DNA of 64,000 nucleotides from Candidatus Gottesmanbacteria bacterium (GTDB lineage Bacteria; Patescibacteriota; Microgenomatia; UBA10105; UBA927): positions 34,865 to 98,864 of the forward strand of contig OY969569.1 of the NCBI GenBank assembly GCA_963701185.1. The letters are read 5' to 3'. The position numbers and the translations under genes were made by a program. Under the pieces are notes generated by a model. The model was not told the origin of the DNA, ran no database searches, and worked only from the letters and a program-made list of their open reading frames with translations. Positions 2,540 to 54,516 of the stretch are shown here, one piece after another; the first letter of the stretch is position 1; each line of letters starts with the position of its first letter.

Positions 2540-3284
2540 ACTTCTGGTAATCTGCGGACCGACGGCAACAGGGAAAACAGCGTTAGCCGCGGCACTTGCC
2601 AAAAAATTCAACGGCGAACTGATTTCCGCCGATTCCCGGCAGGTGTATCGGGGTAATGATCTGGAAACTAATAAAGAGAGGCCGGATGTTCCCATCTGGT
2701 TATATGACGTCGTAGACCCGGGAGAAGAATTCAGCGTAGCACATTGGTTGAAGTTAGCCCGGGTTGCTATTGGTGATATCCTCAGACGCGGAGAGTTACC
2801 GATAGTTGTGGGTGGCAGCGGGTTGTATATTCATGCATTAATACATCCGTTTGAAACCGTGGATATACCTCCGGATGAAAATTTCCGTAAACGGAACTTA
2901 ACACTTCAGGAATTACAGCATATGACACTGCGGGGAAGTATGAATGATTCTGATTGGAATAATCCTCGCCGGCTGATTCGAAAAATAGAAATAGCAAAAT
3001 CAACAGTAAAAAAGAATATTCCTCAGCCGTATGATGTTCTGATTATCGGATTAATGGCTCCGCTTCCGGTTTTGTACAAGCGAATTGACGATCATGTACA
3101 GGAGCGCATTCGTGCAGGCATGAACAAAGAGAACGTTATAAACGAACATGCGATAGCCAGGAAGCAACTAACATGGTTTAAGAAACAGAAAGAGATTCAC
3201 TGGTTTGATGTGACGGATACGGCATTTCCGGATAACGTGACTGCGCTCGTGGGAGCATGGTATACTACTGGTAGTTATGTTTAG
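2532..3284 (+). CDS. miaA: tRNA dimethylallyltransferase
   Basis: P-loop GPTATGKTALAAALA, ISADSRQVYRG and the following MiaA-like body; internal ATG at 2532 chosen over ORF start 2451, which would overlap miaB. Confidence 0.85.
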   Translation: MHKLLVICGPTATGKTALAAALAKKFNGELISADSRQVYRGNDLETNKERPDVPIWLYDVVDPGEEFSVAHWLKLARVAIGDILRRGELPIVVGGSGLYIHALIHPFETVDIPPDENFRKRNLTLQELQHMTLRGSMNDSDWNNPRRLIRKIEIAKSTVKKNIPQPYDVLIIGLMAPLPVLYKRIDDHVQERIRAGMNKENVINEHAIARKQLTWFKKQKEIHWFDVTDTAFPDNVTALVGAWYTTGSYV

Positions 3285-15887: not shown

Positions 15888-17204
15888 ATGAGTGCAGTGA
15901 GAACCCGTATTGCTCCGTCTCCCACCGGCCAGAATCTTCACATCGGCAATGCGTACACGGCTCTCATAAACTACGTATTTGCCAAACAAAATGGCGGGGA
16001 TTTTATTATCCGTATAGAAGATACAGACAGGACACGGCTTGTGCAAGGATCCGAGGCCCGGATACTCGCGTCACTCCGCTGGCTTGGTATTCCTCACGAT
16101 GAGGGTCCGGACATCGGCGGTCCGTATGCTCCGTACCGCCAGTCCGAACGGCTTGATATCTATACAAAATATGCAGAAGAGCTGGTAGTCGCAGGCCATG
16201 CGTATTACTGCTATTGCACACCCGAGAGACTTGAAGAAATGCGTAAAAATCAGGAATCAAAACATTTGCCCCCGATGTACGACGGATTGTGTAAACATAT
16301 AAAAGGGAAACGCGCAGGGAAGCACGTAATCCGTATGAACGTACCGGATGAGGGGACGACAATATTTCATGACGTCATACGCGGCGATATTTCATTTGAG
16401 AACAAACTGATTGACGACCAGGTGATCCTCAAATCCGATGGCTACCCGACGTATCATCTGGGTGTGGTTGTTGATGACCATATCATGAAGATTACGCACA
16501 TTATCCGCGGTGAAGAGTGGATTTCTTCAACACCGAAACATATACTTCTCTATAAATTTTTCGGGTGGGATGTGCCGCAGATTGCGCACGTATCGGTCCT
16601 GCGCAACCCCGACCGCAGTAAACTGTCCAAACGGAAAAATCCCGTCTGGGTGTCCGATTACAAAGCAAAAGGATTTGTGCCCGATGCGATCAAAAATTAC
16701 CTGGCGACCATGGCATGGAGTTATCCCGGCGGGCAGGACATCTTTTCCGTTGACGACATGATCAGGAAATTCCGGCTTGAGGATATTCAGACAACTGCCC
16801 CGATTTTTGATGTGGAGAAACTGAAATGGATGAACGGAAAGTATTTAAAAGAATCCCAGATTAACGAATTTTATAACAATACATATCCGGAAGAAAAAGT
16901 GAAGCAAATTTGGCCTTTGGTCAAAGAACGGATGAAAGTATTAACGGAATTTGAGACGCTTGCCGGATTCTTTTTCGAGAGACCTCAAAGGCACGACGTC
17001 CGACCCGAACTTCGTACTGCGTTGGAATCCTGTGAGTGGACTCATGATGCAATGGAAAAGGCAATAAGAAAAATTGCCGGAAAAAATGTCAAAGAGGTAT
17101 TTATGGAACTGCGCGTCGCAGTTACCGGTAAAACCGTGGGCCCGCCGCTTTTGGAATCGATGGAAATCCTCGGAAAAGAAGAAACGCTCGCGCGGATTAC
17201 ATAA
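15888..17204 (+). CDS. gltX: Glutamate--tRNA ligase (short form)
   Basis: HIGH motif PSPTGQNLHIGNA, IRIEDTDRTR, KMSKS variant KLSKR; 438 aa. Confidence 0.85.
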   Translation: MSAVRTRIAPSPTGQNLHIGNAYTALINYVFAKQNGGDFIIRIEDTDRTRLVQGSEARILASLRWLGIPHDEGPDIGGPYAPYRQSERLDIYTKYAEELVVAGHAYYCYCTPERLEEMRKNQESKHLPPMYDGLCKHIKGKRAGKHVIRMNVPDEGTTIFHDVIRGDISFENKLIDDQVILKSDGYPTYHLGVVVDDHIMKITHIIRGEEWISSTPKHILLYKFFGWDVPQIAHVSVLRNPDRSKLSKRKNPVWVSDYKAKGFVPDAIKNYLATMAWSYPGGQDIFSVDDMIRKFRLEDIQTTAPIFDVEKLKWMNGKYLKESQINEFYNNTYPEEKVKQIWPLVKERMKVLTEFETLAGFFFERPQRHDVRPELRTALESCEWTHDAMEKAIRKIAGKNVKEVFMELRVAVTGKTVGPPLLESMEILGKEETLARIT

Positions 17205-17517
17205 TTTCTTCTACTTTCATAAATTCAATCGCAGGTTCTTCATAGGGATGGACTTTCTTTATCGCCGTTTTTACTTCTTTTACTTTATTTTCCGGGCAAA
17301 TTATTTCAATTTTTACTTCTTGAACCTGCGAAAGGGTTCCAACTTTACCGATCGTGGGATGTGCGCCTTCTTCGCTTTTCCACTGGCTTACGCATTTTAT
17401 GATTGATGCGCAATGAGAATAATTGCCCAGGATTCCCGCGCCTGCGCCAGATGCAGCGTTAATGATTTTGTCGATTATTTTTGGATTATCCGGACAAAAT
17501 ATATAGAGTTTATACAT
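17197..17517 (-). CDS. Small CutA/PII-like fold protein (Nif3-related, COG3323-like)
   Basis: AASGAGAGILGNYSHCAS and HPYEEP motifs; translationally coupled downstream of era. Confidence 0.35.
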   Translation of the reverse strand: MYKLYIFCPDNPKIIDKIINAASGAGAGILGNYSHCASIIKCVSQWKSEEGAHPTIGKVGTLSQVQEVKIEIICPENKVKEVKTAIKKVHPYEEPAIEFMKVEEIM

Positions 17518-33727: not shown

Positions 33728-35407
33728 ATGGATTCAGTGACATGGAAAATCGGGGGAGAGGCGGGGTTCGGGATCATGGCTTCAGGCACCATGCTTGCCA
33801 AGACGTTTTCCCGTGCCGGATATCACGTCTTAGCAACCAACGAATATCCCTCCCGGATACGGGGCGGGCACAATCTCGTCACCGTCCGCATCGCAATAAA
33901 AAAGTTTGAGGCAATGAGCCGCGACCTTCATATATTGGTTGCATTAAACCGTGAAACCATTGATCTTCATAAACAGGAATTGAGTGAACAGACAATCGTC
34001 CTGTTTGATCCGAAAGACGGAGAATATAGTTCAGGCATTCCCGTGCCGTTCTCGGAGATCGTGACAAAACTCGGCGGGGAACCCGTGATGCGCAACACCG
34101 TTGCCATCGGGGCGAGCGTTGCTCTTTTGGGCAGTCCGTTTGCCAATCTGGAAGCGGTTATTACCGACCAGTTTAAGAAAAAAGGCGCTGATGTTGTGAA
34201 ACACAACGTGGAAATCGCACGGGCGGGATACGACGCGGTGCAGGAAAAATCCATGGTGCTGGCGCCGGCAGAAAAAAAAGAAGACCAGTTGGTCATTAAT
34301 GCGAGTGAAGCAATCGGCATCGGAGCAGTGCGGGCGGGTCTGAAATTTGCGGCAATATACCCCATGACGCCCATCAATGCGCTTATTACCTTTTTGGCGG
34401 ACCACGCCAAAAGCGCGAATATCGTCTATAAGCAGCCGGAAGATGAAATAGCAGGCATCAATATGGCAATCGGCGCGTCCTTATGCGGCGTTCGCAGTAT
34501 GGTGGCCACCAGCGGCGGCGGGTTTGCCCTCATGGTGGAAGGATTATCCTGGGCGGGTATGATAGAAGCGCCGTTGGTTATCGATCTTGGTATGCGTCCC
34601 GGTCCCTCTACAGGAATGCCGACATGGAGCGAGCAGGGGGAATTGCAGTTTGCCATTCATGCAGGGCACGGAGAATTTCCGCGGATTATACTCGCGCCGG
34701 CGGATGCGGCGGATGCATATACACTCACGATCGATGCGTTTAATTTGGCGGACCGCTATCAGGTGCCGGTATTTTTATTAACCGACAAATATATCAATGA
34801 AAGCCAGTGGTGTGTGCCCAAATCCGTCATGTCCGGCGATGTTGTTGTCGACCGCGGAAAACTACTGAAAGAAGCGGTAAGTGATTCTTTTAAGCGATAC
34901 GATCTTGCCGTTCCCGACGGTGTATCGCCCCGAAGCGTTCCCGGCCAGAAAGGCGGCTTTTATATTGCCAATTCCTATGAGCATGATGAAACCGGTCACG
35001 TGACGGACCAACTCCAAATGCGCATCGCGATGGCCGCCAAGCGCATGAAAAAATTTGAGGCAATGAAAAAAGATATGAAAGCGCCGTCAGTATACGGCGA
35101 CCCAGAAGCGGAAATCACGTTTGTGACGTGGGGCAGCACCCGCGGCCCGGTACTGGAGGCAATGAAATTACTTAATAAAAAATCGCGGCTTGTTCATTTT
35201 TCATGGATATACCCGTTCCCTGTTGAGGAAACGATGAAAGTCTTATCGCCGGCGACACGTATTATTGACGTTGAGCAGAATGCCACAGGACAGCTGGCAT
35301 CGCTTATCCGGGAGCATACCGGCATCCTTATGAAAGAAAAATTACTGAAAAATGACGGGAGAATCTGGTATCCGGAGGAGATTGCGGAATATGTCAATAA
35401 CGGCTGA
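33728..35407 (+). CDS. korA: 2-oxoacid:ferredoxin oxidoreductase, alpha subunit (fused gamma-alpha)
   Basis: N-terminal gamma domain (GGEAGFGIMASGTMLAKT..GYHV), alpha domain with GIGAVRAGLKFAAIYPMTP. Confidence 0.8.
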   Translation: MDSVTWKIGGEAGFGIMASGTMLAKTFSRAGYHVLATNEYPSRIRGGHNLVTVRIAIKKFEAMSRDLHILVALNRETIDLHKQELSEQTIVLFDPKDGEYSSGIPVPFSEIVTKLGGEPVMRNTVAIGASVALLGSPFANLEAVITDQFKKKGADVVKHNVEIARAGYDAVQEKSMVLAPAEKKEDQLVINASEAIGIGAVRAGLKFAAIYPMTPINALITFLADHAKSANIVYKQPEDEIAGINMAIGASLCGVRSMVATSGGGFALMVEGLSWAGMIEAPLVIDLGMRPGPSTGMPTWSEQGELQFAIHAGHGEFPRIILAPADAADAYTLTIDAFNLADRYQVPVFLLTDKYINESQWCVPKSVMSGDVVVDRGKLLKEAVSDSFKRYDLAVPDGVSPRSVPGQKGGFYIANSYEHDETGHVTDQLQMRIAMAAKRMKKFEAMKKDMKAPSVYGDPEAEITFVTWGSTRGPVLEAMKLLNKKSRLVHFSWIYPFPVEETMKVLSPATRIIDVEQNATGQLASLIREHTGILMKEKLLKNDGRIWYPEEIAEYVNNG

Positions 35408-43080: not shown

Positions 43081-43329
43081 ATCGGGAGGGTTTCCTGACC
43101 GGAAGAAAGAATAACTTTTTTTGCCTCTTTTTTCGTTTTCCGCTCGGCCCGCACCATTTTTTCAATCGAAAATTCCAGAAGATCGGTTTTGAGGATGACA
43201 AATACGCCCGTCCCGCCTGCCGGGATTTTTTTTGGCTTTGAGTTTTTTGGCTAATATCCAACGGCGGATGGTTCCGGGGTGCTTTTTGAGAAACTGGGCA
43301 GCTTCCGAAACAGTCAGTATTTCATTCAC
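43077..43329 (-). pseudogene. HTH_17 (excisionase/AlpA-like) DNA-binding protein, frameshifted in an A8/T8 run
   Basis: Minus-strand frames give MNEILTVSEAAQFLKKHPGTIRRWILAKKLKAKK and, in another frame, GGTGVFVILKTDLLEFSIEKMV...; removing one base from the T8 run at 43226-43233 joins them into an 84-aa HTH protein. GTG start. Confidence 0.6.
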
Positions 43330-43357
43330 TGCCCGGCTAGTATACCATAGGAGTGCA

Positions 43358-45013
43358 ATGAAAAAAGTTTTTATTTTCCTCCTTTCCCTTTTTGTTTTCG
43401 TGTTCCCGCGCGCTGCGTACGCCTCTGGCGTAGAGCATATTCAAAGTTACGACACGAATGTTGTCATCCAAAAAGACGGGATAATACAGGTTAAAGAGCG
43501 CATCGAATATTTTTTTGATTCCCCGCGGCACGGCATATTCAGAAATATCCCCCTCATAAAAACAAATGACAGCGGCAAAAAATATGAAATGATTCTTTCT
43601 GATATATCGGTGACCGACGACAAAGGGGCGGGCTATTCGTTTACCCAAGTCAGGGAAGGGGATACGGAAGTACTTAAGATAGGCGATGCGGACAAAACCA
43701 TTTCAGGAACGCATTGGTACGTGATTTCATATACGGTTTCCGGCGCGCTCACGTATTTTCCCGGTCATGATGAGCTGTATTGGAATGCGGTCGGTAATCA
43801 GTGGCAGGTGCCAATTGGGAACGCAACAACCACGGTGACACTCCCGCAGGCGGTTGCCCGTGCTGATCTGAATGCCAAATGCGATGTGTGCAGTATGTTT
43901 TTTACGGATACGTCGGTTACGTTTACCGCAACGAGACCGCTTCAGCCGTATGAAGGCATGACCATTGCTGTCGGGTTTCCCAAAGGCATGGTCGCGGTTT
44001 TGGAGCCCAAAGAAGTTGTCCCGTTTTTTTCTACGATAGCAGGAAAAATGACGCTTGTTCTGTTGGCTCTTGCAGCCCTTTTCTGGTATCTGGTTGCTCC
44101 CTTTTTGGTTATCCGAAAATGGTGGAAGTATGGCCGCGATCCGAAACCCGCAATGGGCGAGGTTTCGGCGTGGTTTTCGCCCCCGAAAACGAAAAAATTG
44201 CGCGACCTCACACCCGCGGAAACGGGGACGCTCGTTGACGAAATCGCAAACCTGCGGGATATCTATTCGACCATCGTTGATCTTGCCCGCCGCGGCTTTA
44301 TGAAAATAATTGAAAATAAAAAAGGAGACTATTCGTTTGAGAAGCAAAAGGATTGGGATAAAGATAAAACGCTTCAGCCGTTTGAGCTTGTGTTGTTACG
44401 TGCGATTTTTGAGGGAAAGGACCGCGTCAAGCTCAAAGACCTGGATCTGCACGAAATGTTTGAAACCGTCAAAAAGAAAATCTATGAGTCAATGGTTACC
44501 GGCGGATTTTTCCCGGAGGATCCGCAGAAAATCCGTACGAAATATTACATCCTGGCAGGGTTCGCGTTTATCACCGGAAACATGATCCTGTGCATCGTCG
44601 CGGCGGTTTTCGGCACGCTCATGCCCAGAAAAACGCTGTTTGGTGCCGAACAGGCGGCCGTGGGTAGATCACTCAAGAATTTTTTGGTAAGCCAGGACAA
44701 ACAGCTCGCGTTCCAGGCGAAAAACCAGATGATGTTTGAAAAACTCCTGCCGTATGCCATTGCATTCGGCGTTGAGAAAATCTGGGCCGCGCGGTTTGCC
44801 GATTTAGGTCTTAAACAGCCCACGTGGTACGTATCTGGGTCCGGCACCGCGTTTAATACCGTTATTTTTGCCAACAATCTCGGTCGTGCGGCTGCAGTCT
44901 CGTTTGCCTCGTCTATCACCTCGAAATCCTCGTCCGGCTTTTCCTCCGGTTTCTCCGGCGGGGGCGGTTTCTCCGGCGGCGGAGGAGGGGGAGGCGGCGG
45001 CGGAAGCTGGTAA
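43358..45013 (+). CDS. DUF2207 family membrane protein
   Basis: Signal peptide, conserved DUF2207 N-domain, two TM, Gly-rich C-terminus (SSGFSGGGGFSGGGGGGGGGGSW); AGGAG RBS. Confidence 0.6.
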   Translation: MKKVFIFLLSLFVFVFPRAAYASGVEHIQSYDTNVVIQKDGIIQVKERIEYFFDSPRHGIFRNIPLIKTNDSGKKYEMILSDISVTDDKGAGYSFTQVREGDTEVLKIGDADKTISGTHWYVISYTVSGALTYFPGHDELYWNAVGNQWQVPIGNATTTVTLPQAVARADLNAKCDVCSMFFTDTSVTFTATRPLQPYEGMTIAVGFPKGMVAVLEPKEVVPFFSTIAGKMTLVLLALAALFWYLVAPFLVIRKWWKYGRDPKPAMGEVSAWFSPPKTKKLRDLTPAETGTLVDEIANLRDIYSTIVDLARRGFMKIIENKKGDYSFEKQKDWDKDKTLQPFELVLLRAIFEGKDRVKLKDLDLHEMFETVKKKIYESMVTGGFFPEDPQKIRTKYYILAGFAFITGNMILCIVAAVFGTLMPRKTLFGAEQAAVGRSLKNFLVSQDKQLAFQAKNQMMFEKLLPYAIAFGVEKIWAARFADLGLKQPTWYVSGSGTAFNTVIFANNLGRAAAVSFASSITSKSSSGFSSGFSGGGGFSGGGGGGGGGGSW

Positions 45014-45020
45014 ATCTGGA

Positions 45021-45072
45021 TTTTGCAACATCTTGCAACATTTTGCAACATCTTGCAACATTGTGCAATATG
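45021..45072 (+). repeat. Tandem 10-bp repeats (TTGCAACATY x4 plus a degenerate fifth) upstream of fic
   Basis: ttTTGCAACATCTTGCAACATTTTGCAACATCTTGCAACATTGTGCAATATG; the last TTGCAA lies 17 nt before TAGATT, which ends 7 nt before the fic ATG. Confidence 0.8.
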
Positions 45073-45087
45073 CGGTAGATTGAAGAC

Positions 45088-46083
45088 ATGAAGTTTCCTC
45101 CGGTATACACGTACACTCCCGAAATAAAGCAATTACTCTATGATCTGGACGTTTTGAGAGCAGGTTATGAACTTCATCCTGTACCGGCTCTCTCGGTCGT
45201 CAATCTCCGACGCGCCTCGCTTCTTAAGAGCTCGCTTTATAGCGCGCGCATAGAAGGAAACCCTCTGGATGTTGGAGATGTAGATGATGTCCGTCCGAGT
45301 GATACTGATATTCATAAAATTGAAGTTGGGAATTTGGTTTCTGCATATGAGCAATTATCAGATATCATCGGGCAGAATGTGACACTTGATACACTCAAAA
45401 AGCTGCATGCCGTTGTGCTTCGGAATATTTCGGCAGACGCCGGTTATTTGCGTACGGAAGAATCTGCAATATATAACCAGGCAGGTACTGTTGTTTATCT
45501 CACACCTGCACCGCAAAACATTCGGACACTTTTAGACGCGCTGTGTGTTTATGTGAATGCTGCAAAAGATGCTGTTCCTGTCGCTTCGGGATTGACGCAT
45601 ATCTGGTTTGAGAAGATCCATCCGTTTTTGGACGGCAACGGCAGAGTCGGAAGATTACTGTCTGCCTATATCCTCAAAAAAGGCGGATACGACTTTAGCG
45701 GACTGGTCCCGTTTGAACAGTATCTGGATGAGCACCGCGATGACTATTATCATTTTTTGGGGCAGGATAGACAGGATGTGACTAGTTTTATAGAATTTTA
45801 TCTTACTGCACTTCTTTCGCAGGCAAAAATATCGCTTAAAATCGCATACGAGTTCGACGAGTCCGGTAAACCTGACACATATGCACAGTTAATGCCCCGC
45901 AGGGCAGAAATTATGAGACTCATCGAAGATCACAAGATTGTGACGTTTGATTTTCTTGCCCGAAGATTCCGGGCAGTAGCAGTCCGCACGCTTCACAATG
46001 ATCTCTCTCAACTTACCAAAGCCGGGTTGGTACAAAAAATGGGTTCCACACGGGGAGTGTGCTACACGGTAAAAGAAAAATGA
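45088..46083 (+). CDS. fic: Fic family protein (class II, with N-terminal inhibitory motif)
   Basis: Fic motif HPFLDGNGRVGR; [ST]xxxE[GN] inhibitory motif SARIEGN upstream; C-terminal wHTH-like tail. Confidence 0.85.
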   Translation: MKFPPVYTYTPEIKQLLYDLDVLRAGYELHPVPALSVVNLRRASLLKSSLYSARIEGNPLDVGDVDDVRPSDTDIHKIEVGNLVSAYEQLSDIIGQNVTLDTLKKLHAVVLRNISADAGYLRTEESAIYNQAGTVVYLTPAPQNIRTLLDALCVYVNAAKDAVPVASGLTHIWFEKIHPFLDGNGRVGRLLSAYILKKGGYDFSGLVPFEQYLDEHRDDYYHFLGQDRQDVTSFIEFYLTALLSQAKISLKIAYEFDESGKPDTYAQLMPRRAEIMRLIEDHKIVTFDFLARRFRAVAVRTLHNDLSQLTKAGLVQKMGSTRGVCYTVKEK

Positions 46084-46296
46084 GAAAATTCCCGTCTATA
46101 CTATTTATATATGGCCTACGAAGAGGGCAAAATAAGCATTGCGTTGTTTTGGATAGAGAAGTACCGGAGGTACAGGATCCGGTTCCTACGCTACAAGGGA
46201 GGTTTTATTTACAGCAAGTATTATTACCTGCCCTGGTGGATGGGAATTTTCTATAACCCCAAACCATCCCAAAAAGACTGAAATTCCGGCCGGGAT

Positions 46297-46968
46297 TTAT
46301 TTGCACGTCTCCGATTTTGTAAATCCCGCGGCCCGCGCCTCCGCTTCCGTACAAAACCACTCGTCGCCCTGAAATTTGAGAATTAAAACTCTGCCATAGC
46401 CCCAGCATTGAGGCAGGAAATAAATCTTTTCTCTTTGATTTGTATCATTATTGCCCTTAATTGTGCATGAAGGATTGGGAGGATCAGCTTGGGAACATTC
46501 AGAGCTGTAAATCCCGACATGGTTTTCCCGTGCGTACGTATTGGCCGCATCCATCCGTGTTTTTTGGCTTCCTCCTTCATTTCCGTATTCCCCAAATCCC
46601 GCGCGTACCATAACTTCATTAATGAGCACTCCGTTTTCATATACCAGGCTCATCACGCGGCGCCCGTACCGGTCAACCTCCGGCTCCCGCAGTTGTACCC
46701 GCTTGCCGAGGATAAGGGTGGATAGCGCCTGTTTTGCCTCTTTTCCATAGCAGTACGTGATGTCCGGCGCGTTGATGCCGTAAAGCCGGATCGGCTGGTG
46801 GTTTTCGATGATGAACGTATCCCCGTCAACAACCTCGATAACCTTTTCCCCTTTAAAGTACGGCAGGTTTCCTGCCGCCAGCGCCCCTCCGCCTATAGTT
46901 GCCGCCCCCAATGCCGCCACCAGCAACTTTTTCCATCTTGGAATTGTCCGTTTCTTTTTCCTCCTCAT
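46297..46968 (-). CDS. Thermonuclease (SNase-like) family protein
   Basis: Signal or TM, then VVDGDTF..RLYGINAP staphylococcal-nuclease motifs; Cys-rich C-terminal tail. Confidence 0.7.
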   Translation of the reverse strand: MRRKKKRTIPRWKKLLVAALGAATIGGGALAAGNLPYFKGEKVIEVVDGDTFIIENHQPIRLYGINAPDITYCYGKEAKQALSTLILGKRVQLREPEVDRYGRRVMSLVYENGVLINEVMVRAGFGEYGNEGGSQKTRMDAANTYARENHVGIYSSECSQADPPNPSCTIKGNNDTNQREKIYFLPQCWGYGRVLILKFQGDEWFCTEAEARAAGFTKSETCK

Positions 46969-47128
46969 ATCTCAAGTATATATATCCATCTTACGCCGAT
47001 TTGCAACTTTTTTCGATAGAATTTGTTGTCAAAACGGCTTAGATGGGTAGATACCCGGAACAATTCCGATTGTGAAGGGTATATCCTCAGGTTTGAAAAG
47101 TGTTTTTCGCAATTGAGGGATTCTAAGC

Positions 47129-48091
47129 CTAAGAGGTTTTAGAGCTATACAATTTAAAAAACGCTTCATTCATTTCCTCTTCTTTCCAACCCACTTGTCG
47201 TAATTTAACTTTTAAATCTGCCCATTTTTCTCCTACCGAAATATGGGCGGATATATATTTCATTAATTCTGGATTTGGTTGATAGTGAGATTGTTCCTGT
47301 TGAATAGGGTTGATACTTTGAGGAGAAGTTTGTATTACAGAGTCTTTTGATAATGGGATTTGTTTTCTGAGCCATGACGAAGCCACATCGACCCAATTAG
47401 GATTATTTTGACTATTAGAATTTAATGATCGGCCCAAATTTTCTTGTTCGACTTCCAGTAGTTTAATTAAATAATTTCTTCCGCATAATTGAACATTTGT
47501 ATCGTAGGCGACCTTCCGTGCAAAGCTCGTAAAATTACTATTAGTAAAAATTAGCGCATGGTCACAATGATGTACCGTTTTTCCTGTAAAGACTTCTTGT
47601 ACGGCACGCTCGTTAACATTGCCTTGCCAGCATTTTGCTTGGATCGCTGTACGTCTTCCATCTTTTATTATGATTAGATCTACACCTAGATCACCAGATT
47701 TACCAGTATGTTCAACTTGATAGCCTAAATTTTTATATAAAACCACTAACCGATTCTCAAACTCCGGTCCACTCATCTTATCGATATCAAATATTCCTGT
47801 TTTCGATAACTTATCACGCTGGTACTCTCTATAAATTAGGCGTAATACATATATTACGACGATGAGGATAATCAGAGGTAGGAGAGATGTAATGAGAGAT
47901 ACGACGCTAGCCGATCCACCAAATGCTGCAAGCAGAACAAAACCTACAAGAAGCATGGCAAGACCATTCTCGAGTGAATACTTTGAATTACGCTTATATC
48001 TACCTTGTCTAAACCAATTTTTACCGGAACCAAAGCCAAAATTGCCTAAACTATAGCCTCCAAATCCATAATTATTCCGTCTATAACTCAT
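47129..48091 (-). CDS. Membrane-anchored restriction endonuclease, Mrr_cat-like PD-(D/E)xK
   Basis: Gly-rich N-terminus, two TM, then GPEFENRLVVLYKNLGY..GDLGVDLII..AIQAKCW typical of the Mrr catalytic domain; AT-rich. Confidence 0.65.
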   Translation of the reverse strand: MSYRRNNYGFGGYSLGNFGFGSGKNWFRQGRYKRNSKYSLENGLAMLLVGFVLLAAFGGSASVVSLITSLLPLIILIVVIYVLRLIYREYQRDKLSKTGIFDIDKMSGPEFENRLVVLYKNLGYQVEHTGKSGDLGVDLIIIKDGRRTAIQAKCWQGNVNERAVQEVFTGKTVHHCDHALIFTNSNFTSFARKVAYDTNVQLCGRNYLIKLLEVEQENLGRSLNSNSQNNPNWVDVASSWLRKQIPLSKDSVIQTSPQSINPIQQEQSHYQPNPELMKYISAHISVGEKWADLKVKLRQVGWKEEEMNEAFFKLYSSKTS

Positions 48092-48132
48092 ATCTTAGGT
48101 ATAACACTTCAAGCGAATATATCAAAACATCG

Positions 48133-48159
48133 ACTCGCGAGTGTGAGGGGAGTATAATT
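48133..48159 (+). promoter_or_regulatory. Perfect 10-bp palindrome (ACTCGCGAGT) next to a TATAAT -10, putative operator/promoter of the RM gene
   Basis: Palindrome at 48133-48142; TATAAT at 48154-48159; ATG at 48172, so a very short leader. Confidence 0.45.
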
Positions 48160-48171
48160 TGAGTTGCTTCT

Positions 48172-51100
48172 ATGCAAAATATTTTTGACGACTATATTCA
48201 ATCAATTTCCTCTAAATTTTCCCATGAAGAAACTAGTGAAATGGGATACCGCACCGATTTTGAGATCTTAATCAAGGGGATTTTTGAATCAATTAACGTT
48301 AAGCGGATAGATCACGATGCGAAAGCTCAACAAGGGAATAAGCCGGATTTTGTTGTGCTCAATCACGACGTACCAATTCTTTATATCGAAGCAAAAGATA
48401 TTGGCGTATCTTTAGATAAAGTTGAGAAGTCTGAACAGATGAGCAGGTATTACGGATACGCAAATTTAATTCTTACGGATTACGTAGAGTTTCGTTTCTA
48501 TAGAAACGGTCAACGTTATGAAGATCCCATAAAGGTAGCAAATTATAAATTAAAAAATCGAACAATTACTCCTATTCCGGAAAATTATGAACATGCTTCA
48601 AAAACACTACTCGACTTCACGCAATCACATAAAGAGCCTATACGATCTGGTAAACATCTTTCAAAAATTATGGGTGGTAAAGCTCAAAGGATACGGGATA
48701 ATGTTCGATATTTTCTTTCTAGCGAGTCAGAAAAAAATGCTGAATTAGTGCGTGTTTATGAAACTATTAAAAAACTTCTGGTTCATGATCTTACACCAGA
48801 CACCTTTGCCGATATGTACGCGCAGACTCTCGTCTATGGTCTTTTTATCGCACGTTATTATGATGACTCACCAGATAATTTTACTCGTCAGGAAGCACGC
48901 GATCTTATACCGACGTCCAACCCACTTCTTAGACATTTTTTTGACCATATAGTGGGGCCAGATTTTGATAAACGGCTTGAGTATATCGTAAATGAGTTGT
49001 GTGAAGTTTTTTCTCACGCCAATATTCCAGAGCTAATGAGGGAATATTTCAAGGTTGATCTGTGGGGTAAGACGCATACGGGTCCGGATCCAGTCATTCA
49101 TTTTTATGAAGATTTTTTGAAAGAGTATGATGATGACCTGCGTAAAAAGATGGGTGCTTACTATACGCCATTACCAGTTGTGCAGTTTATTGTGCGCTCC
49201 GTTGATTATTTGCTAGAAAAAGAGTTCGGTCTTGCGGCTGGTTTAGCCGACACGTCTAAGACGGCATCTGGTGTTCACCGTGTTCAAATTCTTGATCCAG
49301 CCGTTGGGACAGGGACGTTTATAAGCGACGTTATAGGGAAAATCTATGCGCGGATATTGAAAGGTAGACAAGAAGGGCGTTGGCCAACATATGTGCACCA
49401 TGATTTACTTCCGCGTTTGCATGGTTTTGAACTGATGATGGCGCCGTATACGATAGCACATTTAAAACTGGGTATAGCTTTTAAACAAACCGGTTTTAAA
49501 TATTTCAATCGTCGTCTCGGTATTTACCTTACAAATTCTCTAGAAGGAGGACCTATACAGGGGGAAATGTTTACAGGCTTCGGTTTTGCAGAAAGCATTG
49601 CTGAAGAGGCAAAAGAAGCTTCAAAGATAAAAAATGAAAAGCCAATAATGGTTGTTGTTGGTAATCCGCCCTACAGCATTAGTTCCTCTAATAAAGGAGA
49701 GTGGATTTTAAATCTTATTAAGGACTATAAGAAAAATTTGCACGAACGGAAAATTAACCTTGACGACGATTATATAAAATTTATTCGTTTTGCCGAGCAT
49801 TTCGTAGAGAAGAACGGAAGCGGTGTCGTGGCGATGATTACCAATAATTCATTCGTTGATGGTATTACTCACCGTCAGATGAGAAAGCATCTACTCGAAA
49901 CATTTGACGATATTTATATACTTAACCTTCATGGCAGTTCTAAGAAAAAAGAAATAGCCCCCGATGGTGGTAAAGACGAGAATGTTTTTGACATTCAGCA
50001 AGGTGTTGCTATATCGATGTTTGTGCGTAAAGAAAAAGAGAAGAAAGGTCTTGGAATAGTTCACTACTCTGAAATTTATGGAAAGAGAGATGATAAATTC
50101 AAGGCCCTTGATGAAAGTAATTTACAAAAGATTAATTGGAAAAGTCTTGATTATTCAGAGCCGTATTATTTCTTTGCGCCAAAGGATTTCAGCGCAAATG
50201 AAGAATATAAGAAAGGATTTAAATTGGCCGATCTTTTTATGAACTACAATACTGGCATACAAACCAAAAGAGATAATTTGACTATCCAATTCGATGAAAG
50301 AAGTATTGAACAGGCAAAAGACGATCTAATTAATTTAGATGACAAAGCTCTTAGATTAAAGTATCGGCTTCCTGCTGATGGGAGGGATTGGACAATAGAA
50401 TCAGCTCGTAAAGATCTTATTAAAAATGACCCAGTAGTAGAGCGCATTCTTTATAGGCCCTTCGATACAAGATATACTTTATATACAGGTAAAACTAAAG
50501 GTTTTCTTGCTTATCCAAGGTCTGAAACATCAAGACACTTAATTGGTAAAGAAAATATCTCCCTCATTACTCTTCGATTAAATGGAGAAAATGAAAAATT
50601 TGTAATTCTGCAGACAAAATATTTAATAGAAAAAGGGTCTCTTGCCTCAGGAAATTATTCCTTTTTTCCTTTATATTTATACGAAGATGGTGGATTAAAA
50701 ATAACAAATCTCAAAAAAGAAATTATCGACGAGATAGAAAAAATCGTTGGAAAAGTTTCTCCGGAAGACATTTTTGATTACATTTACGCCGTTCTTCATT
50801 CGCCAAGATATCGAGAAAAATACAAGGAATTTCTAAAAATAGATTTTCCGCGTGTGCAGTATCCGAAAAACGTCGAAAGTTTCAAAAAACTCGTTTCCTT
50901 CGGAGCAGAGTTGCGCTCACTTCACCTTCTCGAATCACCGAAAGTAAACCAATTAATCACGACTTATCCTGTGGCCGGATCAGACATGATTGAAAAGTTA
51001 ACTTATAAAGACGGCAAGGTGTTTATCAATAAAGACCAGTATTTTGGCGATGTTCCAGGATTAGCATGGAATTTCTACATCGGCGGCTATCAGCCTGCAC

Positions 51101-51231
51101 AAAAGTGGCTTAAAGATCGCAAGAATAGAGTTCTAACTAACGCAGACATTGAACACTATCAGAAAATGATTGTTGCGTTGGCGGAGACGGGAAGAATTAT
51201 GAAGAAAATAGATCTAATTGCACAATTTTGA
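48172..51231 (+). CDS. Type IIG (MmeI-like) restriction-modification enzyme, fused endonuclease and N6-adenine methyltransferase
   Basis: N-terminal PD-(D/E)xK-like D..KPDFVV..IEAKDIG resembling MmeI; methyltransferase motif I (LDPAVGTGTF) and motif IV VGNPPYS; long C-terminal target-recognition region; 1019 aa. Confidence 0.8.
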   Translation: MQNIFDDYIQSISSKFSHEETSEMGYRTDFEILIKGIFESINVKRIDHDAKAQQGNKPDFVVLNHDVPILYIEAKDIGVSLDKVEKSEQMSRYYGYANLILTDYVEFRFYRNGQRYEDPIKVANYKLKNRTITPIPENYEHASKTLLDFTQSHKEPIRSGKHLSKIMGGKAQRIRDNVRYFLSSESEKNAELVRVYETIKKLLVHDLTPDTFADMYAQTLVYGLFIARYYDDSPDNFTRQEARDLIPTSNPLLRHFFDHIVGPDFDKRLEYIVNELCEVFSHANIPELMREYFKVDLWGKTHTGPDPVIHFYEDFLKEYDDDLRKKMGAYYTPLPVVQFIVRSVDYLLEKEFGLAAGLADTSKTASGVHRVQILDPAVGTGTFISDVIGKIYARILKGRQEGRWPTYVHHDLLPRLHGFELMMAPYTIAHLKLGIAFKQTGFKYFNRRLGIYLTNSLEGGPIQGEMFTGFGFAESIAEEAKEASKIKNEKPIMVVVGNPPYSISSSNKGEWILNLIKDYKKNLHERKINLDDDYIKFIRFAEHFVEKNGSGVVAMITNNSFVDGITHRQMRKHLLETFDDIYILNLHGSSKKKEIAPDGGKDENVFDIQQGVAISMFVRKEKEKKGLGIVHYSEIYGKRDDKFKALDESNLQKINWKSLDYSEPYYFFAPKDFSANEEYKKGFKLADLFMNYNTGIQTKRDNLTIQFDERSIEQAKDDLINLDDKALRLKYRLPADGRDWTIESARKDLIKNDPVVERILYRPFDTRYTLYTGKTKGFLAYPRSETSRHLIGKENISLITLRLNGENEKFVILQTKYLIEKGSLASGNYSFFPLYLYEDGGLKITNLKKEIIDEIEKIVGKVSPEDIFDYIYAVLHSPRYREKYKEFLKIDFPRVQYPKNVESFKKLVSFGAELRSLHLLESPKVNQLITTYPVAGSDMIEKLTYKDGKVFINKDQYFGDVPGLAWNFYIGGYQPAQKWLKDRKNRVLTNADIEHYQKMIVALAETGRIMKKIDLIAQF

Positions 51232-51252
51232 GTATTAAAAATAGGAAGTAAA

Positions 51253-51462
51253 ATGATTAGACAACCGGTTACATCATCAGATTTAGCAAGTGTTGGATAC
51301 GATAATGAAGGAAAGATTCTTGAGATAGAATTTAATTCTGGTCAGGTCTATCAATATTTTGCTGTTCCAGAATATATTTATGAGGGCTTGATGAACGCGA
51401 CTTCTCATGGAAAGTATTTTAATCAGGAGATAAAAGATAACTATCAATTTCAAAAACTTTAA
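51253..51462 (+). CDS. KTSC domain protein
   Basis: [49 protein letters not shown] matches the KTSC domain pattern. Confidence 0.6.
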
Positions 51463-51463
51463 A

Positions 51464-53086
51464 ATGAGGATAAGAACAGTTGTAATAAAGAATTATAAAT
51501 GCATAGGTCCTGATCAAATCACAATTGATTTTTCTGAAAATATTGTTGTTTTAATTGGTGAAAACAACGTGGGAAAATCGGCAATTTTAGGCGCGTTAGA
51601 TTATTTTTTCTCCGGAATTAAAACATTGCCACCTGAGCATTTTTATAACAAGCAGAACGATTTTGAGCATGCGATTACAATCACGATTACCTTTTGCGAT
51701 TTGACTCCTGGAGACAAAGCGCATCAAGCTGTTAGTCCCTATATAACGACCCAAGGAAGCGAAAAGCTATGGATATTAAGGAAAGTCTATTACTACGATG
51801 CCGATGGTAAATCTAATTGCGATCACATAGCTATTGTTAACGGTGAAGAGAAAAGAAATCCGGCAGGATTAACTCAAAATCCAAACGATTTATTTACGGA
51901 GGAGAAGATGCAAAAAATATTTATTGAAGCCGTAAAGGACGTTAAAGAAGTGGTCGACGGCGGGCCAAAAACCCCGTTTAATCAAATATTTAATTTAATT
52001 TTAAGAGAAGATTTAGAACAAACCCCACAATACGCAACACTTTTGTCAGCATTAACAGCCTATGGGCAATTATTCCAAGGAGCTACGCAATTAACTAAAA
52101 TAAAGGATTTGGAAACGTCTATAACACAAAAGTTATCACGAACAATAATTGCGACAAGTAAGATTAAGGCAGAGTCTCCAAAAGCTGATAAATTACTTCC
52201 GATACCAAAGTTGACAACGAATGACGGTAGAATAATTGATGTTGATCCGTCCGAACAAGGACATGGTTTACAAAGATCAATAATATTTGCGTTGCTTGAA
52301 ATGTTAGCAGAAACAAATAGCCCGATAGACAAAGATGTTGGGCCTAATAACTTATTACTTATTGAAGAACCAGAAATATATATGCATCCCCAAATGGAAC
52401 GAAAAATCGCAGATACTCTATATGAGATTGCATCATCCGGAAAGGCTCAGGTAATATGTACGACACATTCTCCGATTTTTATTAGAATTGCGGATAAACA
52501 CAAAGCTATGGTTAGATTAGTAAGAAATGATGATGTTTTGAAGGCCATTCAAAGAAGTGATGTTTTTTCTGGGGATGACAGAGAGGAAAAAAGAAAGCAA
52601 TTAAGGATGATTACTAATTTTGACCCCACCGTTAACGAAATATTTTTTGCTAAAAGAATTGTTTTAGTAGAGGGTGATACAGAAGTAGCGGTATTTAGGG
52701 AGGCTGCAGAATTATTGAATTATTTTGAATCAGAAGTGAATAAACATAAAAAAAGAGATACAACATTTGTAAATTGCAGAGGCAAATGGACGATTAATTT
52801 ATTCCAAGAAGTGTTGAATCATTTTGATATTGATTATGTTGTTATTCATGATAAGGATGGTGAGGCTCTTGATGAGGGCGCAAATGGGAAGATTTTAACT
52901 TTGTTGAGCAATATTGAGGATAGACGTAGGTATTTTGATGATAAAATTGAAACAGTAATTGGGATAAGAGATGTTGGAAGCGAGAAACCAATTAGGGCTC
53001 TTGAACGAATTAATCAACTTCATGATGAGGGTGGTTTAGAACATGCGTTTGGAAGTTTTATAAAATTCGCATATGATATAGTTTAG
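51464..53086 (+). CDS. OLD-family ATP-dependent endonuclease (AAA_15/21 ATPase plus TOPRIM)
   Basis: Walker A GENNVGKS, ICTTHSP H-loop-like segment, C-terminal TOPRIM (RIVLVEGDTE ... HDKDGE, DxD). Confidence 0.75.
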   Translation: MRIRTVVIKNYKCIGPDQITIDFSENIVVLIGENNVGKSAILGALDYFFSGIKTLPPEHFYNKQNDFEHAITITITFCDLTPGDKAHQAVSPYITTQGSEKLWILRKVYYYDADGKSNCDHIAIVNGEEKRNPAGLTQNPNDLFTEEKMQKIFIEAVKDVKEVVDGGPKTPFNQIFNLILREDLEQTPQYATLLSALTAYGQLFQGATQLTKIKDLETSITQKLSRTIIATSKIKAESPKADKLLPIPKLTTNDGRIIDVDPSEQGHGLQRSIIFALLEMLAETNSPIDKDVGPNNLLLIEEPEIYMHPQMERKIADTLYEIASSGKAQVICTTHSPIFIRIADKHKAMVRLVRNDDVLKAIQRSDVFSGDDREEKRKQLRMITNFDPTVNEIFFAKRIVLVEGDTEVAVFREAAELLNYFESEVNKHKKRDTTFVNCRGKWTINLFQEVLNHFDIDYVVIHDKDGEALDEGANGKILTLLSNIEDRRRYFDDKIETVIGIRDVGSEKPIRALERINQLHDEGGLEHAFGSFIKFAYDIV

Positions 53087-53090
53087 TCGC

Positions 53091-53849
53091 ATGTCTCAAT
53101 ACTACAATCCCCATCGCGTAAAGAATAAGTATGAGGAGGGTGCAACTGAGTTGTTCAGGCTCAGCCGGTCGAAGGTGGATCTGTTTATCAACTGCCCGAG
53201 GTGCTTTTATCTGGACCGCAAGCTTGGGGTGGGGCAGCCGCCGGGGTATCCGTTTTCGCTTAATTCAGCCGTTGATAAGCTCTTGAAGAAAGAATTTGAT
53301 ATCCACCGGGCGAAGGGGACGCGGCATCCCTTGATGGAGCATTACGGCATTGATGCGATACCGCTTGCGCATGAAAAGATGAATGAGTGGCGCGATGCGC
53401 TGCGCGGGGGGATTACGTTTCAGATTGAAGGATCGAACGTAGTCGTGACCGGAGGAGTTGATGACGTGTGGTTGGCGCCTAACGGAGAGTATTATATCGT
53501 CGATTACAAAGCGACGTCCAAGGATGCGGAGGTCACGCTGGATGCTGACTGGCAAATAGGCTACAAGCGGCAGATGGAAATATACCAGTGGCTGTTCCGG
53601 AAGAACGGATTTCGGGTGTCCGATACCGGATATTTTGTGTATTGCAACGGGAATACCGACAAGAAGGCGTTTGACGGGAAATTGGAGTTTGATATCAAAA
53701 TTATTCCCTACGTTGGCGACGATTCGTGGGTTGCGGGAACGATCCATGATGCGATTAAATGCTTGCAAAGCGAGCACTTACCTGCGTCGGGGGCGGATTG
53801 TGATTATTGCAAATACAGGAAAGCGGTACGGCCGTTTGAAACTGCCTAA
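53091..53849 (+). CDS. Cas4/RecB-like PD-(D/E)xK nuclease with Fe-S cysteines
   Basis: N-terminal CPRC, core VDDVW...IVDYKAT (D..D/E-x-K), C-terminal C-x12-C-x2-C (CLQSEH..ADCDYC); GC about 52%, unlike its AT-rich neighbours. Confidence 0.6.
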   Translation: MSQYYNPHRVKNKYEEGATELFRLSRSKVDLFINCPRCFYLDRKLGVGQPPGYPFSLNSAVDKLLKKEFDIHRAKGTRHPLMEHYGIDAIPLAHEKMNEWRDALRGGITFQIEGSNVVVTGGVDDVWLAPNGEYYIVDYKATSKDAEVTLDADWQIGYKRQMEIYQWLFRKNGFRVSDTGYFVYCNGNTDKKAFDGKLEFDIKIIPYVGDDSWVAGTIHDAIKCLQSEHLPASGADCDYCKYRKAVRPFETA

Positions 53850-53883
53850 CCTATCTCTATATTTTTATCCGCATTTTGGTATC

Positions 53884-54516
53884 ATGTTGGTAATGCTCGT
53901 ATTTATTGATGATTCAGGAGATCCCGGATTTAAACTCGATAGAGGTTCCAGCCCCGTCTTTGTTATTTCCCTCACCATTATTGATGATAATTTGGAAGCA
54001 GAAAAAACATCGGTTGCGATAAAAGAGTTGCGCCGGAAATTGAAAGTACATGATGCATATGAGTTTAAGTTTAATAATTGCCATAAACGTTTCAAGAATG
54101 CATTTTTTTCTGCAGTATTACCGTTTATCTTTCGTGTCCGGGCGATAGTGGTAAAAAAATCCGTCATACGAAGTACGCATCTGCAAACTCATAAAGAAAA
54201 TTTTTATAACTATATTGTGATGCAGGTATTGAAACATAGTGTTGGTTCCGTCAAATCAGCGAGGTTAAAGTTTGATAAACGCGGTGAAAAAGCGCTTCGT
54301 AACGAGTTGCGGGTGTATTTGAGTTCAGAACTTGATAATAAACATAAGAATGTATTTACCGACTTCAAATTTGTTGATTCAAAACAAAACACACTTATTC
54401 AACTTGCGGATATGATAGCAGGTGCAATATTTGCGGCGTATTCGCGAAAAGACTCATCCTATGTTAATAAATTGCGGAAAGCGAAAAAGATTGAGGATAT
54501 TTGGGAGTTTCGATAA
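53884..54516 (+). CDS. DUF3800 family protein
   Basis: MLVMLVFIDDSGDPG N-terminus and QLADMIAGA motif characteristic of DUF3800. Confidence 0.6.
   Translation: MLVMLVFIDDSGDPGFKLDRGSSPVFVISLTIIDDNLEAEKTSVAIKELRRKLKVHDAYEFKFNNCHKRFKNAFFSAVLPFIFRVRAIVVKKSVIRSTHLQTHKENFYNYIVMQVLKHSVGSVKSARLKFDKRGEKALRNELRVYLSSELDNKHKNVFTDFKFVDSKQNTLIQLADMIAGAIFAAYSRKDSSYVNKLRKAKKIEDIWEFR

Follow-up and report, generated by a model that had tools for sequence, protein, structure and literature searches.

A direct-repeat array fused to a predicted leaderless promoter as a putative operator of a SoFic-like Fic protein in Microgenomates bacteria

What is an array of 10-bp direct repeats doing immediately in front of the start codon of a fic gene? 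This question is raised by a 64,000-nt stretch of a Candidatus Gottesmanbacteria contig (OY969569.1, forward-strand positions 34,865 to 98,864; hereafter the window, in whose coordinates all positions are given), where tandem copies of TTGCAACATY precede a gene for a Fic protein whose C-terminal domain is a winged helix-turn-helix (wHTH). An initial annotation described the array as iteron-like and as overlapping a leaderless promoter, and offered three explanations: operator sites for the Fic wHTH, operator sites for a neighbouring HTH_17 protein, or stacked alternative promoters. By comparing the locus with its orthologues from the Microgenomates, a group within the candidate phyla radiation (CPR), we arrive at a reading that we consider probable, namely that this SoFic-like class II Fic protein regulates its own expression, probably as a repressor, through a multi-site operator fused to a leaderless promoter.

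The array proved longer than the four and a half copies first described. Four copies of TTGCAACATY do stand at exact 10-bp phasing, as confirmed both by the sequence and by Tandem Repeats Finder (TRF), and the register continues through two further units, GTGCAATATG and CGGTAGATTG, giving six in-phase units over 45023-45082. Read from 45023, the sequence is TTGCAACATC TTGCAACATT TTGCAACATC TTGCAACATT GTGCAATATG CGGTAGATTG AAGAC ATG, with the A of the ATG at 45088. The first five units, U1-U5 (45023..45072, plus strand), are of the operator type and were delimited by TRF, by an exact-match search and by comparison with orthologous arrays, whose family consensus is nnGCAAnATn. The sixth, U6 (45073..45082, plus strand), includes the -10 hexamer TAGATT (45076-45081); because the 10-bp register runs on through GTGCAATATG and CGGTAGATTG, this hexamer is the last, modified unit of the array. 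TRF reported 45020-45068 with a period of 10 (4.9 copies, 87% matches, score 77) and with a period of 20 (2.5 copies, 96% matches, score 91), and this was the top-scoring tandem repeat of the window. All four exact occurrences of TTGCAACAT in the window fall within the array; by our own simple arithmetic, four exact 9-mers at fixed 10-bp spacing would arise by chance in 64 kb with a probability of ~1e-11, and their arrangement is no chance event. The array begins 8-10 nt past the stop codon of the upstream DUF2207 gene, which ends at 45013. No terminator was predicted between the two, and the array, as DNA or RNA, folds no better than shuffled sequence (z = -0.61).

How is the array placed relative to the start of transcription? 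The initial annotation had read the last TTGCAA as a -35 element 17 nt from TAGATT, and the fic ATG as lying 7 nt after the -10 element; both placements hold. The -35-like TTGCAA (45053..45058, plus strand) forms positions 1-6 of U4, which is unit N-2 when U6 is counted as unit N, and is separated from TAGATT by a 17-nt spacer (45059-45075). The hexamer ends 6 nt before the ATG (45088..45090, plus strand), whose A is the 7th nt beyond it. A gene counts as leaderless when its transcript begins at the start codon or a few nt from it, with a -10 element ~6-7 nt upstream and no Shine-Dalgarno sequence. From this geometry, from the conserved spacing and from the conserved N-terminus of the orthologues (M-K/L-F/I-P-P), we place the predicted transcription start at the A of the fic ATG. 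Although the leaderless geometry is present and conserved, it is not peculiar to fic, as the same spacing peaks among other genes of the window. Shine-Dalgarno-like sequences were found for 5 of the 57 long open reading frames (ORFs) of the window, and a TAnnnT hexamer ending exactly 6 nt before the ATG, often as TGnTAnnnT, is the commonest arrangement (10/57). Many window genes have TGnTAnnnT ending 6-7 nt before the ATG, examples being those that start at 15888, 28156 and 57771 and, on the minus strand, at 17510 and 19578. Leaderless transcription from extended -10 promoters thus seems to be the default in this genome, in which case leaderless expression would be nothing special to fic.

If the array serves the fic gene, it would be expected to accompany that gene elsewhere, and a comparison with homologous fic loci had indeed been suggested as a check. 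A scan of the GTDB species genomes yielded 80 loci with 35-81% protein identity from the Gottesman-, Levy-, Curtiss-, Roizman-, Collier-, Ames-, Shapiro-, Davies-, Woese- and Pacebacteria. A 10-bp array was visible in the 130 nt upstream of nearly every start codon (76 loci, at least 10 Microgenomates lineages). Using TRF (period 10, 20 or 30, score of at least 40, within 160 nt upstream of fic), we detected an array upstream in 59 of these 76 loci and overlapping the start in 3 more, compared with only a handful of unrelated period-10 repeats elsewhere in 555 kb. A further 80 loci from metagenomes gave the same picture. All told, the array abuts the start codon in nearly all of ~130 non-identical orthologous loci, which share 35-85% protein identity and lie in unrelated neighbourhoods, with mostly 3-6 and usually 4-5 units in a locus (range 1-7). 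In three orthologues, which show 84%, 78% and 77% identity, it stands directly before the start codon, whether the gene follows a second fic gene (locus L001), is divergent from an HTH_17 gene (L004) or, with three units only, follows ftsZ (L007).

The association also holds in the reverse direction. A search of 812 kb for strict arrays (at least 3 units) returned 126. A script recognised a fic start downstream of 107 of them; of the remaining 19, 17 are opposite-strand reads of fic arrays or precede a fic gene that it had missed. The two exceptions are a weak reverse-strand match in L165 and an orphan array in L078 (564-593; TGGCAAGATT AGGTAATATT AGGCAATATC), which is found just past the end of a fic gene with no ORF behind it and may be the remnant of a lost tandem fic copy. 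Copy-number variation among otherwise identical loci, without effect on expression, had been put forward as an observation that would count against a function. The number of units does differ from species to species, yet where several samples yielded an identical gene they yielded an identical array with it (L001-L003, L004-L006). Beyond this family, the best full-length distant Fic-wHTH homologue on a plasmid, from Azotobacter (28% identity), is encoded within a type I restriction-modification operon and lacks a promoter of its own; another distant plasmid match, in Sinorhizobium, is unannotated.

We next consider how the units of the array differ from one another. Of 131 non-identical loci, 82 have exactly 5 nt between the end of the last unit and the ATG, giving the order -10 hexamer, 6 nt, ATG. 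These last units (n = 82) read TGGTAAnAT, an extended -10 (T1 91%, G2 83%, G3 87%, T4 98%, A5 99%, T9 98%), whereas the upstream units (n = 280) read nnGCAAnATn (T1 47%, G3 91%, C4 87%, A5 100%, A6 97%, A8 95%, T9 98%). A single C-to-T difference at position 4 therefore parts the operator-type units from the promoter-optimised last unit. With C4 at 87% and T1 at 47%, the upstream units are de-optimised as -10 elements, and they retain G3, A5, A6, A8 and T9 at 91% or more. Unit N-2, at the -35 position, is enriched for T1 (68%) relative to units N-1 (30%) and N-3 (41%). Identity at position 1 is likewise higher between units 20 bp apart (0.54) than between units 10 bp apart (0.36); this weak 20-bp super-period is real, and is mostly, perhaps not fully, due to T1 in units N and N-2. 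Throughout the family the repeats are direct, since TGGCAA, TTCTAA and others are non-palindromic; self-complementary units are confined to the TTGCAA clade, and the palindromic TTGCAA of the window clade is incidental.

Some loci depart from the usual arrangement. Four (L036, L045, L159 and L090) have an insertion of 60-165 nt between the array and the fic start, which contains inverted repeats rich in GC, such as tcatcctgagcgaag...cgaaggatc; two of these loci, L036 and L159, also have GGAG just before a GTG start. The insertion looks like a small mobile or structured element that makes fic leadered, and similar 'cctgagcg/cgaagg' repeats also occur upstream of the L007 array. In L059 (5598-5638), TRF picked up a second, degenerate array, ATTCGGCAGG ATTAGGCAAT ATTCGGCAAG ATTAGGCAAT, 2.6 kb downstream of fic. 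The ORF that follows it has an N-terminus resembling, by eye only, a 2-hydroxyacid dehydrogenase, and this array may mark a second regulon member or a duplicated promoter.

The fic gene of the window (45088..46083, plus strand) encodes 331 aa, and several lines of evidence agree with the initial annotation of this product as a class II Fic protein. It matches Pfam Fic (3.6e-17) and the PADLOC SoFic defence model (1.9e-46, residues 40-326 against profile positions 52-349 of 361), and its AlphaFold2 (AF2) model (pLDDT 87) gave full-length Foldseek matches to 4RGL, 7CB8, 7XUX (CccR), 8CIL (CbFic2) and 3EQX (SoFic), with alignments of 340-367 columns to 4rgl, 7xux, 8cil and 3eqx. Both motifs that had been noted are present and, as judged by translation and by an alignment of 20 orthologues, conserved. 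The active-site motif H178-PFLDGNGRVG-R189 (45619..45654, plus strand), which fits HxFx(D/E)GNGRxxR, is invariant in these orthologues. The auto-inhibitory motif S52-A-R-I-E56-G-N58 (45241..45261, plus strand), which fits (S/T)xxxE(G/N), lies N-terminal to the Fic core within helix 34-55 of the model, and its residues S52, A53, I55, E56, G57 and N58 are invariant. An active-site motif with an inhibitory motif N-terminal to the core in one polypeptide defines class II, reportedly in the scheme of Engel et al. 2012, and the Fic-wHTH architecture is that of SoFic-like proteins (IPR048770; PADLOC SoFic). The PADLOC match, the modelled winged helix, the Foldseek matches and the invariant motifs together identify the protein as a class II SoFic-like Fic. 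Its nearest homologues come from Candidatus Gottesmanbacteria, and of 8000 candidates scored, 4670 qualified as homologues at E <= 0.001.

The wHTH domain occupies residues 270-328 (45895..46071, plus strand). DSSP analysis of the AF2 model gave helices 270-282, 287-293 and 299-311 and strands 284-286, 315-318 and 325-328, the last two strands forming the wing. Helix 299-311 is the recognition helix (45982-46020, plus strand). Invariant wHTH residues in the 20 orthologues were R271, R272, R292, R293, R295, T301, L302, H303, D305, T321, R322 and G323. In sequence alignments to CccR or SoFic, none extended into the winged helix of the window protein.

If the Fic winged helix reads the array, protein and DNA should vary together, and this is what we observed. 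The 5' part of the unit varies by clade (TTGCAA, nGGCAA or TGGTAA, TTCYAA, TAGCAA) and changes along with the recognition-helix motif R300-T-L-X303-x-D. Among 127 distinct proteins, Arg at residue 303 goes with G at unit position 2 in 91 of 95 cases, His with T in 18 of 22 and Ser with A in 4 of 6; Arg at residue 300 goes with G at position 3 in 114 of 115 and Lys with C in 5 of 5. Co-variation marks R300 (45985-45987) and H303 (45994-45996) as the candidate specificity residues of the window protein. To control for shared ancestry, we built a neighbour-joining tree from residues 1-258 only, thereby excluding the winged helix, and placed changes on it by parsimony. Residue 303 changed 11 times and position 2 changed 16 times, and 8 of these changes fell on shared branches among 252 (hypergeometric p = 5.4e-9). 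This pair was the best of 2304 residue-by-position tests, the next being Q308, also within the recognition helix, with position 6 (8.6e-5). When only the first data set was used, the strongest pairs were H303 with position 2 (6.5e-8), S307 with position 2 (1.4e-5) and R300 with position 3 (7e-5); residues 300, 303 and 307 are 3-4 residues apart and so lie roughly on one face of helix 299-311. The changes at residue 303 and position 2 run in a direction that makes chemical sense: Arg303 is never lost without a loss of G2, and of its two gains on a single terminal branch, that in L081 accompanies a gain of G2 and that in L052 does not.

Conservation in unrelated contexts, fixed geometry and co-variation with the recognition helix, each of which, like the array itself, is directly observed, support the repeats as putative operator sites for the Fic winged helix, and favour this option among those of the initial annotation. 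From them we infer physical binding, a head-to-tail stoichiometry, repression as the sign of regulation and the site of transcription start. In the mechanism that we propose, TAGATT of the last modified unit would act as the -10 element, TTGCAA of unit N-2 as the -35 element and the A of the ATG as the transcription start. Several Fic molecules would line up on the direct repeats along one face of the helix, one winged helix per unit, with Arg300 reading the G at position 3, and with position 2 read by residue 303, which is His in the window protein and Arg in most other clades. Occupied units over the -35 element, the spacer and the -10 element would exclude RNA polymerase. A potentially toxic SoFic-type AMP-transferase would in this way be negatively autoregulated, and multi-site binding would give a steep threshold. 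Occlusion and negative autoregulation are the likeliest outcome of binding because the units reach the -10 element, because the last unit keeps a G3 that the promoter does not need and because the related Fic protein CccR is a repressor.

Several points weigh against this proposal. The case rests wholly on comparative sequence analysis, and the co-variation statistics depend on ~8 coincidences of change, several of which lie on one long terminal branch each; the main Arg/His and G/T split is one deep event. There are exceptions to the code in L052 (Arg with A/T) and in L067 and L070 (Leu or Ala with T). The promoter scores 8/12 against the E. coli consensus in a simple sigma-70 scan and, with a threshold of 9, is omitted from its output. 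Known Fic-wHTH proteins are symmetric dimers, CccR on inverted repeats, and such a dimer has no evident fit to direct repeats. Finally, direct repeats that replace a -35 element are also typical of activators such as PhoB.

Autoregulation by Fic-wHTH proteins is itself already known, and the direct-repeat array is what is new. CccR of Yersinia pseudotuberculosis (PDB 7XUX) is a class II Fic protein with a C-terminal HTH that represses its own promoter, and its operator consists of two inverted 10-bp repeats 26 bp apart, near -35 and -10, bound by one dimer (PMC9755527). The window protein resembles CccR in an identical N-terminal SARIEG, in the Fic core, in the C-terminal HTH and in a full-length Foldseek match. 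Both also have 10-bp boxes near -35 and -10, and by eye only, AGATAATCAT of CccR resembles AGGTAATATT of some clades. CccR is, however, a type VI secretion effector of a proteobacterium with low sequence identity to the window protein, and where it has an inverted pair the Microgenomates loci typically have 3-6 direct repeats in 10-bp phasing that merge into the -10 element and abut the start codon; as direct repeats, the family arrays do not form an inverted-repeat operator of the CccR type. In L001, a second fic paralogue (301 aa) lies ahead of the orthologue, and its upstream region (2750-3010) contains array remnants (TTTGCAATCC ... CTGTAACATCTTGCAATATC) together with two copies of a different inverted repeat (ttcacgtc...gacgtgaa and ttcacgcc...ggcgtgaa), which suggests that this paralogue may use a different operator.

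SoFic of Shewanella oneidensis, for which autoregulation has been suggested, binds to the 100 bp immediately upstream of its own gene, and does so in a dimer-dependent manner (bioRxiv 10.64898/2026.07.09.737422) and belongs to an anti-phage defence family (PDB 3EQX; PMC12249575). The window protein shares with it the PADLOC model match, the full-length structural match and a position near restriction and nuclease genes, a context in which the CPR protein may have a defence role. The two differ in that the operator sequence of SoFic is undefined, whereas a defined array is present here, and in that the E. coli Sofic has a small downstream antitoxin, AS1, whereas window-type fic genes have no conserved downstream ORF: no conserved small ORF of the AS1 type was found, and the downstream ORFs form unrelated small clusters. 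In type II and IV toxin-antitoxin systems (e.g. AbiEi), a DNA-binding module cooperatively represses its own promoter and so limits a toxic enzyme (cited in PMC9755527). Here, by contrast, toxin, inhibitory helix and DNA-binding domain are part of one polypeptide, and the putative operator is a long direct-repeat array.

Could the Fic protein bind the array to a different or a further end? Co-variation indicates reading by the winged helix and not its outcome, and the units might serve as activator sites, as in PhoB/OmpR, or as a DNA scaffold that sets the oligomeric and catalytic state of the enzyme, for example where dimerisation induced by DNA would switch it between AMPylation and deAMPylation. 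Winged helices of the PhoB/OmpR type bind head-to-tail on direct repeats about one helical turn apart, overlapping or replacing the -35 element, as in the pho box. They constitute another winged-helix family, however, made up of response regulators that usually activate, and they bind paired sites rather than 3-7 units running into the -10 element. Activation is further disfavoured in that most clades have an extended -10 (TGnTAAnAT), which is normally activator-independent, and CccR, the only tested relative, is a repressor. A scaffold would agree with the better fit of the window array to a 20-bp than to a 10-bp period and with the position-1 likeness at lag 20. It would also recall the Coxiella burnetii protein CbFic2 (PDB 8CIL), likewise a Fic of class II, with a winged helix whose binding to DNA controls dimerisation and activity: ~20 bp spans both winged helices, and DNA of this optimal length, 20 bp, induced dimerisation and stimulated activity (PMC10628234). 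CbFic2 differs in that its binding is reported to be largely sequence-independent, it is a secreted effector acting on histones and it has no known cognate repeat array. The lag-20 signal, moreover, comes largely from T1 in units N and N-2, where it serves the extended -10 and -35 elements. The passage of the units across the spacer into the -10 element, and the 87% G3 in a last unit whose promoter does not need it, fit occlusion better than activation, and we regard both activation and a scaffold as unlikely.

Related to the scaffold, and to our minds decidedly doubtful, is the idea that the array is a stoichiometric DNA dock that keeps most of the few Fic molecules in the cell as a DNA-bound oligomer, inactive or deAMPylating, with promoter DNA as co-antitoxin. 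By our own estimate, 5-7 sites in an ultra-small CPR cell could hold a large share of all Fic molecules. Were this true, loss of the DNA-bound state through phage nucleases, competition or a change in supercoiling would free the toxin and derepress the gene at once, and one repeat array would couple sensing, enzyme activation and expression.

A quite different possibility is that no dedicated protein binds the repeats and that they are stacked alternative promoters 10 bp apart, with TTGCAA as -35 and CAACAT as -10. The construction of the array does place 17 nt between positions 1-6 of one unit (i) and positions 4-9 of the next but one (i+2), and CAAYAT retains the critical A at -11 and T at -7. 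Yet C occupies the -12-equivalent position in 87% of upstream units as against 2% of last units, a systematic replacement of T that tells against this option of the initial annotation. T1, which provides the TG of the extended -10, is found in 47% of upstream units as against 91% of last units, such that only the last unit is promoter-optimised. Upstream starts would in addition imply leaders of 10-50 nt lacking a Shine-Dalgarno sequence in a genome of leaderless starts, and co-variation with the Fic recognition helix would be left unexplained. We therefore consider stacked promoters very unlikely.

Might another protein, either the neighbouring excisionase-like HTH_17 protein or a global regulator of the host, bind the array? 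In the closest relatives, L004 and L008, an 83-aa HTH_17 gene is divergent from the same intergenic region. Besides the window, however, HTH_17 homologues were found in the three closest distinct loci only (7 of 169 loci; for 121 fic loci the sequence reaches 600 nt or more upstream), and L007 has the array without an HTH_17 gene. In the window, the HTH_17 gene (43162-43329, minus strand) is truncated to 55 aa, as compared with 83 aa in L001, L004 and L008, and a DUF2207 membrane-protein gene with a poly-Gly tail (43232-45013, plus strand) stands between it and the array. Since HTH_17 and fic are directly divergent in L004 and L008 and separated in the window, where HTH_17 is also truncated, a local rearrangement is suggested. 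Restriction of HTH_17 to the closest clade and its truncation here speak against this second operator option, and the co-variation implicates residues of Fic itself; a different binding protein is highly improbable.

Least credible of all, and barely worth entertaining, is a reading of the array as a set of iterons (from a replicon or a mobile element) or as a contingency repeat, hypermutable and switching expression by copy number: despite the iteron look (several directly repeated, helically phased units), the neighbourhood of defence and mobile genes and the variation in copy number between species, no Rep gene, replication initiator or origin context was found among neighbours that encode DUF2207, SNase, Mrr-like and restriction-modification proteins, the distance between array and fic start stays the same where the gene lies in unrelated stretches of chromosome (downstream of ftsZ, for example), samples that share an identical gene also share its exact array, gain or loss of a whole 10-bp unit leaves the promoter geometry intact, and the lack of significant predicted secondary structure noted above adds to these points. 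Plasmid iterons are typically 17-22 bp, lie in the origin and bind the Rep initiator; in the absence of a replicon context, the label is a visual resemblance only.

We also looked for decoy arrays in phages. In IMG/VR, three copies of TTGCAAYAT returned one contig and three copies of GGCAANAT returned six; none was next to a fic gene, and the repeats were heterogeneous and unrelated, so this candidate was set aside. These viral contigs (L170-L176) carry short intergenic tandem repeats of the GGCAAnAT type, with many copies in, for example, L171 and L173.

Downstream of fic, the window contains further genes with a likely role in defence. An SNase gene (46297-46968, minus strand), a gene for an Mrr-like nuclease with an N-terminal membrane-like segment (47129-48091, minus strand) and a gene for a type IIG restriction-modification enzyme (48172-51231) all lie within 5 kb of fic. 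GC content falls from about 0.48 to 0.35-0.43 over 46000-54000, which is probably an acquired defence island adjoining fic. A DUF3800-IX RNA (RF02968; 54520-54591, minus strand; 66.5 bits against an Rfam gathering score of 36.8) lies in a low-GC stretch beside the restriction-modification genes.

Our results would extend autoregulation by Fic-wHTH proteins to a large environmental clade with a different operator logic, that of helically phased direct repeats fused to the -10 element. Our literature searches brought up no case in which a conserved array of direct repeats runs into a leaderless promoter and can be read, across a clade of the CPR superphylum, through a protein-DNA code. The CPR (Patescibacteria) are almost wholly uncultivated, and we know of no experimentally defined pair of transcription factor and operator from them. 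Here a predicted operator, a predicted promoter and a two-position code that pairs residue 303 with base 2 and residue 300 with base 3 can be read from the sequence, and the code predicts specificity swaps. The geometry of TGnTAnnnT, 6 nt and ATG is relevant to the calling of gene starts in CPR assemblies. And since a single gene, that for SoFic, is recognised as an anti-phage system in itself, tight control of its dose at several sites, if it operates as proposed, would bear on how toxic defence enzymes are kept harmless to the cells that carry them.

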